Translations under genes and position numbers: made by a program
The notes under the pieces: generated by a model
What the model saw: the letters and a program-made list of their open reading frames with translations, nothing else
What the model was told of the DNA's origin: nothing
The model's database searches: none
NCBI RefSeq assembly: GCF_024298765.1
Contig: NZ_CP101219.1
Length of the DNA: 2,353 nucleotides
From: Escherichia coli
GTDB taxonomy: Bacteria > Pseudomonadota > Gammaproteobacteria > Enterobacterales > Enterobacteriaceae
Direction: 5' to 3' (one strand)
Part shown: positions 141-2,353 of the stretch, piece after piece
Layout: each line of letters begins with the position of its first letter
Position numbering within the stretch: position 1 is the stretch's first letter

Positions 141-240
141 CACGTTTGGGGTGTCGGGGCTTGCCCTGACAGGAGGTATTCTCATGCAAGCGAATGTATT
201 CGCGGTATGACGAATACACATCCTGTCCCATTTTCCGCTA
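141..240. other. Candidate origin of transfer (oriT/bom-like) of the ColE1/MOBP5(HEN) type, upstream of the RHH gene start.
   Basis: GGGGTGTCGGGGC at 148-160 matches, from my recollection, the GGGTGTCGGGGC motif next to the bom/nic region of pBR322 and pUC backbones. It is followed by a GGGCttGCCC hairpin and nested inverted repeats GCGAATgtATTCGC (189-202) and GTATTCG-N9-CGAATAC (195-217). Its position just upstream of an MbeC-like gene matches ColE1-type MOB module layout. The nick site cannot be located by eye. Confidence 0.35.
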
Positions 241-597: not shown

Positions 598-1200
598 CCT
601 CGCAATGGGAGCATTAATCACCGTACAGTGCTCCGCCAGATGCTGGCGGCCTCAAATCCACCAAGCCGCCACGGTTCCGGCAGCGCCTTGAGCGCAACCG
701 GAAACCGACTGGGGAGAACCCCAGACCCCCACCGCTGCAACATCATCGGTCTGCGACCACCTACCAACCGAGTGGCTGCCTGTACCGTGCAAACGGGCTT
801 TGCAGGGGGCTGGCGCGGTTCCTGGCGACCTGAAAGCCCCTGGTTAGGGGTATCGGCGCGCCTGGCTTCCTGAAACCCTCTGTAAGCGTTTTTCGCGCCT
901 TCCATGCCCTGACGGGCATTTAGACCCCGTTTTGTGCGTTTGGGAAGTTCTGAGCGCGTTTAACAGATGGCCAGCGACTCGATCGCCTAGAATCAAATCG
1001 GGATCATCAACGATATGCGAGAGGTGGCACCGCTCGCCGCAGCCCCAGCGACCGAGCCGCCAGGCTCGCGAGTGGGCGAGGAAGCGGAAGGGAATCTGAT
1101 TCAACATAGTGCACTTACGCACAGAATTTGGCCTACGCGCCCGCGTCCGTGCACACGTTTAATAAGAATTAAGAAGGGAAATCGCGATAAACCGCGCCAA
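598..1200. other. GC-rich island with no credible coding frame; candidate structured noncoding RNA or cis-acting DNA element, function unknown.
   Basis: Abrupt change from AT-rich flanks to G/C-majority sequence. The four ORFs in the track here (63-95 aa) overlap on both strands and are Arg/Trp/Gly/Pro-rich, as expected for chance frames in GC-rich DNA. Hairpins: CCGCCAG-atg-CTGGCGG (633-649); nested CGGTTCCGG...GCGC-cttga-GCGC...CCGGAAACCG (672-707); CCCCT-ggtt-AGGGG (837-850); ATGCCC-tgac-GGGCAT (904-919). Palindromes: GGCGCGCC (855-862), CTCGCGAG (about 1064-1071), GTGCAC at 1110-1115 and 1149-1154. Confidence 0.4.
821..880 (+). repeat. Imperfect 20-bp direct repeat CCTGGCnnCCTGAAAnCC (821-840 and 861-880) flanking a hairpin and the GGCGCGCC palindrome.
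   Basis: cctggcgacctgaaagcccc versus cctggcttcctgaaaccctc, 16 of 20 identical, start-to-start spacing 40 bp. A third CTGGCG copy lies at 810-815. Confidence 0.5.
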
Positions 1201-1332
1201 TCCTAGAATCTAATGATCAGGATATTGATCTAACGTATCAGAATAGAGCATCTAACATATCAATCTCTTGATACTTAAAATATTAATTGTTTGTTTTTTG
1301 CTCACCTTTGATGTGCTTTAATTGATATTTAA

Positions 1333-1352
1333 GGTATCAGAATTGTGATACC
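1333..1352. repeat. Palindromic operator/iteron 1: GGTATCA-gaattg-TGATACC.
   Basis: Perfect 7-bp inverted arms with a 6-bp spacer, read directly from the sequence. Confidence 0.6.
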
Positions 1353-1367
1353 AGTCGATTCGGTTTA

Positions 1368-1396
1368 TTGACATCTGGAGATTTTTTCTTGATAGT
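1368..1396 (+). promoter_or_regulatory. Candidate sigma70 promoter of rep: -35 TTGACA (1368-1373), 17-bp spacer, -10 GATAGT (1391-1396).
   Basis: Consensus -35 hexamer; the -10 matches TATAAT at 4 of 6 positions; ideal 17-bp spacing; correctly placed about 40 bp upstream of the rep ATG. Confidence 0.45.
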
Positions 1397-1398
1397 CG

Positions 1399-1420
1399 AG
1401 GTATCAGTTTATTGATACCT
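1399..1420. repeat. Palindromic operator/iteron 2: AGGTATCA-gtttat-TGATACCT, overlapping the predicted rep transcription start and just upstream of the RBS.
   Basis: Perfect 8-bp inverted arms with a 6-bp spacer; same core as operator 1, centre-to-centre spacing about 67 bp; lies between the candidate -10 (1391-1396) and the Shine-Dalgarno (1421-1425). Confidence 0.6.
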
Positions 1421-1434
1421 GAGGGTGTAAAATA

Positions 1435-1968
1435 ATGAGCAAGGCTTTAAACAAACGATTTAGTGAAAATCCTTTCATCAAAGATTTGATAATTCCTGTA
1501 AAAAACAAACAAGTAAGAATATCGCGATTAGGAGAAGATAATAACATAATGATTAACCAATCAACTGGAGAGGTTTTAGGGGGAACTTCGGTAGTAACTT
1601 ATAAAAAAGTTGATAGTGATAATTTTATTAAATTGTTTACCCAAAATATAAAATTGGCTTTCGAGTTAACACAAGCTGGTCAAAAAGCACTATTTGTTTT
1701 ATTTTGGGCAGTACAAAATAAAACAAATAATGATCTAGTCTTATTAGATCAATACACGCTAAATGATTTTATAAATGAAAACAAAGGTTTAACTATGTCC
1801 CTTCCAACATTCAAACGTGGGCTTGGGGAGTTGGTAAAATCACAAATATTAGCAATGAATAAGCGAAAGGGATTTTATTATATAAATCCTAATTTTGTTT
1901 TTAATGGTGATAGAGTTGCATTCACAACAGTTCTTGAAATGAATAAATCGAGTCATAAAGATAAATGA
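1435..1968 (+). CDS. repL: Plasmid replication protein, RepL family (177 aa).
   Basis: Intact ORF with ATG and Shine-Dalgarno, low-GC codon usage. C-terminal pattern ...LPTFKRGLGELVKSQILAMNKRKGFYYINPNFVFNGD resembles the winged-helix region and the conserved NP...GD motif I recall from RepL proteins such as staphylococcal pSN2 RepL. Palindromic operators and a promoter lie directly upstream. Family assignment is from recalled similarity, not a search. Confidence 0.6.
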   Translation: MSKALNKRFSENPFIKDLIIPVKNKQVRISRLGEDNNIMINQSTGEVLGGTSVVTYKKVDSDNFIKLFTQNIKLAFELTQAGQKALFVLFWAVQNKTNNDLVLLDQYTLNDFINENKGLTMSLPTFKRGLGELVKSQILAMNKRKGFYYINPNFVFNGDRVAFTTVLEMNKSSHKDK

Positions 1969-1978
1969 CAATGTATTA

Positions 1979-2018
1979 AAACCCGCCAAATTGGAATTTC
2001 AAATTTATTGGCGGGTTT
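1979..2018. terminator. Candidate bidirectional intrinsic terminator between the convergent rep and RHH genes.
   Basis: Perfect 11-bp stem AAACCCGCCAA (1979-1989) / TTGGCGGGTTT (2008-2018) with an 18-nt AT-rich loop. It is flanked by T/A-rich sequence on both strands, 11 nt after the rep stop and 30 nt after the RHH gene stop. The loop is longer than typical, hence moderate confidence. Confidence 0.5.
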
Positions 2019-2047
2019 AATATTCGTGACGGCTAGCGCCGAAGATT

Positions 2048-2353
2048 TTAGCTAAATGTGTTTGAGCCAGGATATTTATTTTTATGATGCCGTTTTATTA
2101 TTTTTATTTCCTGTTTTAATAAATCCATTTGATTATATATATCAGAAATTCGCTTCGTTACTATTTTCATTTCATCGCAAAGTAAAATTATTTTATGCAT
2201 CACCTCGAGGTACTCTTTATCCTTCGGCCGCTTTCCCTTATCAAATAATTTCTTCTGCATCCGACCAAGTCGGATTAATTCATATAAATACCTGGAAGGT
2301 ACGCGCTGTTTTATTTCATTATTTAAACTTGCCGTCCTGATATATTCTGAAAT
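2048..2353 (-). CDS. C-terminal segment of the same RHH protein if the molecule is circular. The frame is open from the window end (2353) to the TAA stop at 2050-2048.
   Basis: The reverse complement of 2261-2353 translates without a stop as ISEYIRTASLNNEIKQRVPSRYLYELIRLGR and continues into the 70-aa ORF listed at 2048..2260. Codon boundaries land exactly on 2353 and on position 1, so ...EGLT (ending at position 1) joins ISEYIRTASL (starting at 2353) in frame. This completes the second RHH helix (GLT-ISEYIR). Combined protein is 141 aa. Confidence 0.5.
   Translation of the reverse strand: MSEYIRTASLNNEIKQRVPSRYLYELIRLGRMQKKLFDKGKRPKDKEYLEVMHKIILLCDEMKIVTKRISDIYNQMDLLKQEIKIIKRHHKNKYPGSNTFS

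Follow-up and report, generated by a model that had tools for sequence, protein, structure and literature searches.

Here, we analysed the GC-rich island at positions 598–1200 of a 2,353-bp stretch of DNA (the window), which as a whole is a complete E. coli-type mini-plasmid. On its left side, the island is preceded by an origin of transfer (oriT) and a nikA-like mobA gene, while the origin of a RepL-family initiator overlaps its right edge and the initiator gene lies farther to the right. We propose, with a probability of roughly 0.6, that positions 660–1125 constitute a horizontally exchanged non-coding priming cassette, in which each strand bears one single-strand initiation (ssi) signal: an ssiA-like primosome assembly site on the plus strand and a predicted G-site-like element on the minus strand. 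A quarter of this minimal replicon would then be explained by ordinary host-dependent priming signals, with nothing exotic needed.

The initial annotation, made from the letters of the DNA, had described the island as a single GC-rich element, dense with hairpins, 8-bp palindromes and spaced direct repeats and devoid of a convincing open reading frame (ORF). We could confirm the composition (59.5% GC in 598–1200 vs 32.5% elsewhere) and the hairpin density, with six perfect hairpins (stem of at least 6, loop of 3–8) against 1.15 expected from dinucleotide shuffles (P=0.01), among them 633–649, 709–724, 788–804, 904–919 and 1053–1068; the hairpins 672–707 and 837–850 are imperfect yet conserved. 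The palindromes are not enriched (4 seen vs 3.1 expected, P=0.37), and of the direct repeats one substantial pair was retained, 821–842 and 861–882 (22 nt, 82% identity, 40-nt spacing), with no other beside it. Folding energy is better than that of shuffled sequences only at about 601–770 (z −3 to −4.7), the rest of the island being structured no more than its composition predicts. The non-coding character was confirmed: codon periodicity is lacking, with variable sites distributed as 25/31/21 over the three codon phases, indels of 1, 2, 4, 10 and 11 nt are tolerated in cassette copies, and the window has a frameshift in what forms a long minus-strand ORF in a relative. Since the search of the island ORFs against NCBIfam matched no family either, a degraded protein gene was ruled out. 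The island is real and functional-looking, but it resolves into several known kinds of replication cis-elements instead of one.

A BLAST comparison with plasmids matched the island in 1,514 PLSDB records, from which homologous islands were collected. The stretch that they have in common has sharp borders near 660 and 1125 (222 high-scoring segment pairs, 116 loci), and the collected loci contain 74 unique full units, flanked by at least 12 types of sequence on the left and about 20 on the right. Positions 598–659, covered by only 13–19 of about 145 homologous stretches, and 1126–1200 lie outside this unit, being sister-restricted and part of the RepL origin, respectively. The enterobacterial plasmids with the cassette carry at least six unrelated replication systems. 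Beside the cassette we found RepL, the 158-aa HTH_36 Rep of ~1.5-kb plasmids, the own Rep of pMG828-1, RepA of 24–30-kb conjugative plasmids and true ColE1-type RNAI/RNAII origins, and parts of it also adjoin the pir-like Rep of IncX4 and precede rep in a MOBQ plasmid of ~4 kb. As unrelated initiators accompany the cassette, the cognate origin of one particular Rep was ruled out. The same holds for an oriT, since the I-type oriT lies outside the island; three copies of a cassette element in one plasmid also speak against it, and 1.5-kb relatives owe their typing as "mobilizable" to separate oriTs, R64-type and ColE1-type, that adjoin the cassette. The suggestion of captured DNA stands insofar as many plasmid backbones have exchanged 660–1125 as a mosaic cassette. 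Its sub-modules are also found apart: 733–908 alone, 872–1089 in IncX4, 1030–1122 alone, and 665–961 without the right part. Twelve variants carry insertions of 55–56 nt after position 969, and conservation in the left part centres on 670–730, 800–860 and 880–920, with the blocks 849–860 and 893–909, which were preset by the search pattern, being excluded as conservation evidence. A 17-mer scan of genome contigs returned mainly chance matches in GC-rich genomes, and a scan of viral contigs returned no true copy of the cassette.

The right part (module B) of the cassette is the more readily assigned one. Positions 1029–1089 align with 1308–1364 of ColE1 at 76% identity (E 3e-5; z=13.9 vs shuffles), and the homology continues on to about 1125 and the corresponding bases of ColE1. 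The matched segment lies 110–170 bp downstream of the ColE1 ori, between ori and rop; role and place of ColE1 ssiA, also known as n'-pas or rriA, have been described previously (PMC3167613, PMC3640518). The arms CCGCTCGCCGC and GCGAGGAAGCGGAA of the core hairpin are invariant in ColE1, IncX4, MOBQ4, RepL, pKL1-like and 24/30-kb plasmids, while the interior differs, and four base pairs of the hairpin display compensatory double changes among 10 divergent sequences. On the level of sequence, 1022–1125 is homologous to ColE1 ssiA, a PriA-dependent primosome assembly site. The site of the window shares with that of ColE1/pMB1 also the strand relative to the direction of replication (lagging-strand template or displaced strand). 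In contrast, it has its own perfect inner hairpin at 1053–1068, and it is located upstream of a Rep-dependent RepL origin, while the ColE1 site is located downstream of an RNAII-primed origin. In a 24-kb MOBC plasmid (locus L012 of our collection), two inverted ssiA-like sites, 7370–7428 on the minus and 9329–9386 on the plus strand, flank repA and its downstream region, placing one primosome assembly site per strand around that origin.

For the left part (module A), the most conserved block of the family to which 733–925 belongs is GGCTTTGCAG, the exact complement of CTGCAAAGCC. In phage G4 this decamer has a unique exact match at 3996–4005, with ori_c annotated at 3998, and it is unique in the window too (chance 0.01 each for G4 and the window). 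The CAG/CTG of the start block is invariant in all branches of the family. By analogy with G4, we predict a primer start opposite T804, with the primer running rightwards (5'-AGGGGGCUGGCGCGG...). The unit 733–925 is common to 24-kb, 30-kb, IncX4 and IncI2 plasmids, and an alignment of five branches has in common the start block, a hairpin at the position of H3, the covarying helix H5 in four versions, CCTTCCAT and hairpin H4. At the H3 position, GCGGC..GCCGC is found in IncX4/IncI2, CCCGC..GCGGG in F ssiE and CCGGC..GCCGG in R100. H5, the loop of which contains the second copy of the 22-nt repeat, covaries to GGGGCG/CGCCCC (IncX4/IncI2), GGCCA/TGGCC (F ssiE) and GGCGG/CCGCC (R100), and the H4 stem is retained with six different loops and in the compensatory variants ATGCCGC/GCGGCAT and ATCCGC/GCGGAT. 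A divergent, inverted copy in IncX4 likewise shows compensatory changes in H5 and H4 and another hairpin at the H3 position. Over the alignment, 98.3% of the cells are paired, vs 88.8% in shuffles (0/500 reach the observed value) and 38–63% in slid registers. Out of the four hairpins for which compensatory changes had been envisaged in the annotation, 904–919 thus displays them and the position 837–850 keeps a hairpin with unrelated sequences, while 672–707 is conserved and 633–649 falls outside the shared cassette.

The IncX4/IncI2 branch of this family comprises 1,141 plasmids, mostly IncX4 and IncI2, with 3,201 places and 2–5 copies each. In IncI2, all four copies immediately precede small leading-region genes, in sense orientation, and these genes are directed toward oriT. 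In the IncI2 mcr-1 plasmid NZ_LC511662 they occupy 4827–5030, 5678–5762, 7779–7982 and 8755–8814; two of them are annotated as "hypothetical protein" (4800–5033 and 7752–7985), ORFs which are probably spurious. An IncX4 copy is found at 1891–2086 of locus L005. A comparison with the Frpo/ssi reference set of Samuel et al. 2024 gave a specific 27-nt match to the complement of F ssiE, with z 6.5 for the copy of a conjugative plasmid and 2.9 for the window. On the leading side, F ssiE is 0.6–1 kb away from oriT, and it was deposited in the orientation of the transferred strand. In R100, the best match of the family profile in 44 kb (E 0.008) is located in the non-coding stretch downstream of repA/oriR, beyond a DnaA box and a Ter-like site. 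This is the expected place of the primase-dependent G site of R1/R100, and we take plasmid G sites to belong to the G4 type. Like these G sites and G4 ori_c, the window element has three stem-loops that lie, on its active strand, 5' of the CTG start, and a leading-strand-template or transferred-strand orientation; the exact start decamer is that of G4, and with F ssiE and the R100 element it shares CCTTCCAT, a GC hairpin and a covarying helix. It differs from them in its low identity outside the short blocks, in its convergent arrangement with a fused n'-pas and in the A1 hairpins (665–730) that precede it. A tentative reading, less likely than not, is that 733–925 stands for a large family of structured single-strand signals without a name so far, with F ssiE, the R100 G-site region and the leading-region copies of IncI2/IncX4 as its members, and that in small plasmids the element is fused with an n'-pas. 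An apparent likeness of 879–919 to the ssiB-bom region of ColE1/pBR322 found no support (local alignment z 2.1, profile search also negative).

In the 30-kb plasmid CP061000, which encodes a type IV secretion system, direct repeats of 733–908 bracket ccdAB (L009, 4146–4320 and 5001–5176), which suggests recombination at these elements, and a third copy is found at 22921–23096 of L013.

Coordinates of the features in and around the cassette
Feature	Position	Strand	Remark
mobA gene, nikA-like	spans window ends	−	
I-complex (R64/IncI-type) oriT, adjoining mobA/nikA	148–234	+	76% match to IncI-gamma/K plasmids
GC-rich flank with hairpin 633–649 (CCGCCAG-ATG-CTGGCGG)	598–659		only in window and closest sisters
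Portable non-coding cassette (module A, spacer, module B), 466 bp	660–1125		81–94% identity across backbones
Sub-module A1, two conserved hairpins	665–730		near-invariant block, significant folding z-scores
Hairpin H1, GGTTCCGG..GCGC-CTTGA-GCGC..CCGGAAACC	672–707		
Hairpin H2, CTGGGG-AGAA-CCCCAG	709–724		
G-site-like (G4-type, primase-dependent) ssi element, predicted	733–925	−	related to F ssiE
Predicted primer-start block, CTGCAAAGCC	796–805	−	equals start decamer of phage G4 ori_c
Hairpin H3, CCCC-TGGTTA-GGGG	836–851	−	present in every branch, with unrelated sequences
Helix H5, GGCGCG (855–860) / CGCGCC (894–899), 33-nt loop	855–899	−	
TTCCAT, then hairpin H4 at 904–919 (ATGCCC-TGAC-GGGCAT)	900–919	−	
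Variable, indel-prone spacer between signals	926–1021		highest entropy in cassette
ssiA-like, phiX174-type primosome assembly site (n'-pas)	1022–1125	+	PriA-dependent by homology
Core hairpin of ssiA-like site, arms CCGCTCGCCGC / GCGAGGAAGCGGAA	1029–1089	+	~58-nt consensus hairpin
Conserved region (CR) of RepL/pHW126-like origin, ATAAGAATTAAGAAGGGAA	1162–1180	+	fixed distance in relatives
Iteron-like repeats ahead of rep gene	about 1330–1420		
rep gene, RepL-family initiator	1435–1968	+	Pfam RepL PF05732, E 1.5e-9

Taking the orientation of the cassette into account, the two signals can be assigned to strands. The cassette follows the RNAII direction in 9/9 ColE1-type plasmids, so that the lagging-strand template bears ssiA and the leading-strand template the G-site-like part, and in every Rep-dependent backbone it points the same way as rep. 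The ssiA-like site consequently sits on the strand that becomes single-stranded, namely the lagging-strand template of ColE1-type plasmids and the rep-sense strand upstream of the CR. The active orientation of the 733–925-type element is the transferred strand (T-strand) in the leading regions of F and IncI2; since this orientation is the complement of the plus strand of the window, module A would act on the minus strand. From homology, conservation of structure, orientation rules and distribution, all of which were observed, we infer the enzymology (PriA/DnaG), the primer start and the use of both signals in this plasmid. The plus strand would be exposed as a single strand through displacement, as rolling-circle or unidirectional synthesis proceeds from the downstream RepL origin, and also on entering a recipient from the I-type oriT. 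Positions 1022–1125 would then fold on this strand and PriA would assemble the primosome (PriB, DnaT, DnaB/DnaC, DnaG), with which complementary-strand synthesis could begin. On the minus strand, 733–925 would present its three conserved stem-loops, followed by CTGCAAAGCC, and DnaG primase, together with SSB, may start a primer at the CTG (T804), by analogy with G4 ori_c, the R1/R100 G site and F ssiE. Plus-sense synthesis from this primer would proceed rightwards through the origin and rep, i.e. in the leading-strand direction.

The 1.5-kb plasmids illustrate how both signals could be put to use. Their R64-type oriT transfers the plus strand, while an inverted ColE1-type bom transfers the minus strand, and because the two oriTs oppose each other, each transferred strand has one signal in active orientation; which strand is transferred depends on the helper. 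It should be noted that the 1.5-kb loci mostly represent one backbone and are not independent observations. In NZ_OX637967, the oppositely oriented oriTs adjoin the cassette at 1479–1552 plus 1–20, and at 121–180. If the proposed arrangement is true, a convergent cassette with one signal per strand would allow conversion to duplex whichever strand the relaxase of the helper transfers. Pairs of priming signals near an origin, one per strand, are known from oriV of RSF1010 (ssiA/ssiB) and from ssiA/ssiB of ColE1. The signals of RSF1010, however, are recognised by the plasmid's own RepB' primase, and those of ColE1 are both n'-type and arranged back to back, whereas the signals of the window differ in type and face each other. 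With G4-type and phiX174-type signals on opposite strands, the mobile cassette would be a small natural system in which the classic models of leading- and lagging-strand priming could be examined.

The plasmid backbone is consistent with a role of the right signal at the RepL origin. The oriT is located directly upstream of mobA, in a layout identical to that of IncI-gamma/K plasmids, and its nicked and transferred strand is the plus strand. The nearest relatives of the window plasmid are E. coli plasmids of 2.2–2.6 kb, and the wider group is that of the AT-rich RepL or pHW126-like plasmids (pHW126, pIGRK, pIGMS31). For these, a REP module in the order ssi – CR – iterons – rep has been described, the ssi of which is dispensable for replication, its loss leading to higher copy number and multimerisation (PMC6854812; bioRxiv 10.1101/2022.12.05.519187). 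The window contains all parts of such a module, i.e. a RepL initiator, iterons, a CR of ~20 bp and an upstream ssi. All enterobacterial RepL relatives have an ssiA-like element on the rep-sense strand, with the CR following 60–93 nt downstream; in the window, ssiA core and CR are 93 nt apart. The CR motif AAGAAGGG is located at exactly −161 from the rep ATG in RepL plasmids of Bartonella, Vibrio, Klebsiella and E. coli, and at −264 in the window. The spacing of ATAAGAAYTAAGAAGGGA upstream of RepL genes is constant from Bartonella to E. coli (loci L290, L291, L292 and L008), and this motif is probably the CR or nick-region motif of the RepL family. RepM of pIGMS31 has been described to nick the plus strand just upstream of the CR; the displaced strand therefore bears the ssi in active orientation and exposes it last, comparable to the single-strand origins of rolling-circle plasmids. 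By published description, the pHW126-like plasmids thus resemble the window in their RepL-type initiator, the AT-rich backbone, the order of the REP module and the position of the ssi on the nicked and displaced strand. They differ in that the Rep of the window is only about 33% identical to that of the pHW126 clade, and the additional ~360 bp of module A are unreported there.

Two further observations concern the RepL origins and their backbone. The motif GAGCGTAGCGAC occurs ~60–90 nt upstream of the CR in Bartonella pBGR1 and Vibrio pZF002 and also within ColE1 ssiA (GAGCGTAGCGAG), and its TAGCGA resembles the CS-6 motif of Gram-positive ssoA. In NZ_CP054360, a sister plasmid of 2.31 kb, oriT, mobA and cassette are 92–95% identical to the window, while the RepL/iteron module (window 1124–2063) is a different one; the 2.31-kb sisters have undergone a swap of the whole replicon on a conserved mobilisation-plus-priming backbone.

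Several points weigh against the proposed pair of priming signals, most of them concerning the left one. The covariation in 733–925 derives from few independent events. A comparison of the whole region with G4 ori_c reaches z 1.2, the start decamer alone being matched, and the profile match in R100 is modest. The profile hidden Markov model of the family finds F ssiE with E 0.42 only, next to the pairwise z of 2.9 for the window, so that the link to F ssiE rests on the 27-nt motif and the shared architecture. The place of the G site in R1/R100 and the G4-type nature of plasmid G sites are, moreover, taken as given here. G.T wobbles show no strand preference in module A (9 vs 8 variant types), and a strand call based on them was dropped after the recount by variant type. 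The plus strand is the one that leaves from the sole oriT of the window plasmid, and under pure rolling-circle replication the minus strand is at no time exposed. As exposure of the latter is not obvious, module A may be idle cargo in this plasmid, unless the origin opens in a theta-type manner, as reported for pIGMS31. Finally, the conserved hairpins of A1 (about 65 bp) are not explained by priming signals. A1 is found only in small-plasmid copies and is missing from the copies on conjugative plasmids. Its hairpin H2 occurs in the compensatory variant CCGGGG..CCCCGG, and in some variants the loop AGAA is flipped to TTCT with the stem intact, a change characteristic of template switching where a palindrome is extruded. 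A long-range pairing of 670–684 with 775–789 was rejected, as it shows no covariation and position 784 varies freely.

The orientation of the conjugative-plasmid copies could also be read differently, with module A (733–925) as an Frpo-like single-stranded DNA (ssDNA) promoter that drives early leading-region transcription on the T-strand and persists in the window as a relic or as a primer site for RNA polymerase. The sense-oriented copies of IncI2 fit this, the second IncX4 copy and the three copies of the 30-kb plasmid are likewise located upstream of genes, and F ssiE was grouped with Frpo sequences by Samuel et al. 2024. Like the Frpo sequences (F ssiD, ColIb-P9 ssi1-3), the IncI2/IncX4 relatives of module A are GC-rich, hairpin-dense, about 200–330 nt long, present in several copies and placed upstream of leading-region genes on the T-strand. 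However, neither strand of 598–1200 contains a −35/−10-like hexamer pair or a −35/−10/UP mimic, sequence similarity to F ssiD/Frpo or ColIb Frpo1-2 is absent (z <= 1), and no long-range stem with significant folding energy, as expected of Frpo, was found beyond 770. F ssiE would furthermore transcribe antisense to the SLT gene, and both the start decamer of G4 and the location of the R100 element speak for primase. An identity as Frpo was ruled out on promoter elements and homology, and we regard the broader Frpo-like reading as unlikely. Judged improbable to a comparable degree is that the cassette is passenger DNA from co-resident plasmids, of which the ssiA part alone, if any, is in use, while the remainder persists because it is recent and neutral. 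Its mosaic distribution with many flank types, the separate occurrence of sub-modules, the RepL relatives of Klebsiella, Vibrio and Bartonella that lack module A, and the poor exposure of the minus strand would agree with this. Yet a cassette that makes up 20–30% of plasmids of 1.5–2.4 kb is kept in hundreds of them, stems are conserved while loops and spacers drift, sisters with a swapped rep module kept the cassette at 94% identity, and its orientation relative to the direction of replication is strictly conserved.

Structured RNA, a multimer resolution site and a second origin, which had been brought forward in the initial annotation next to single-strand initiation and primosome assembly, fared worse than the latter two, which are supported by the ColE1 ssiA homology and by the membership of module A in the family of F ssiE and the G-site-like R100 element. 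A regulatory RNA (a copy-number antisense RNA, a ColE1 RNAII-like primer RNA or a leader) would suit the conserved stems and their compensatory changes equally well, and the origins of pIGMS31 and pIGRK have been reported to contain extra promoters of unassigned role. Nevertheless, an Rfam covariance scan matched nothing within the island, although RNAI (RF00106) was readily found in ColE1 controls; promoter-like or terminator-like signals are absent from the cassette and its edges, the flanks vary by backbone and leave no shared external promoter, and module A has no similarity to the ColE1 ori/RNAII region (z 0.6). A ColE1-type RNAII/RNAI origin was ruled out on these grounds, and an RNA encoded by the island is very unlikely. 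Least probable appears a function as Xer-dependent, cer-like multimer resolution site or as second, Rep-independent origin, in spite of the multimerisation that follows loss of the ssi region in pHW126-like plasmids, the direct repeats around ccdAB and the fact that the cassette underlies a "replicon" typing probe. In a scan for an XerC arm, a 6–8 bp spacer and an XerD arm, half-site matches were at chance level and none was validly arranged, whereas cer of ColE1 was found by the same pattern with 0 mismatches; similarity to cer is lacking as well, and on both counts a Xer/cer site was ruled out. As to a second origin, every cassette plasmid has its own initiator or RNAI/RNAII system, and the island holds no origin of the RNAI/RNAII type.

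We therefore favour the reading of 660–1125 as a priming cassette, which also bears on larger plasmids. IncI2 and IncX4 are the main mcr-1 vectors and carry 2–5 copies of the 733–925-type element per plasmid, making their leading-region copies a candidate for the start of the complementary strand, or for early expression, in a new host. Should these multi-copy members also drive early expression, they would represent a second class of ssDNA promoter, distinct from Frpo.

Downstream of the cassette, a strong hairpin, AAACCCGCC...GGCGGGTTT, is located at 1975–2062 (minus strand) between the converging rep and mobA genes. With sub-threshold Rfam matches only (P9, ncr1175), it is most simply explained as a bidirectional terminator. 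The distribution of the cassette also touches plasmid typing: pMG828-1 (NC_008486), the reference of Col(MG828), shares with the window only the cassette (871–1334) and the oriT, and Col(MG828)-typed plasmids carry at least four unrelated initiators, so that this replicon type appears to track the non-coding cassette and not a replication gene. Finally, the "Escherichia phage" records OX638291, OR844749 and OR844798 of 1.4–1.9 kb, as well as tiny contigs in assemblies of Streptomyces, Flagellimonas and Streptococcus, are evidently pKL1-like plasmids that entered these data by mislabelling or contamination.

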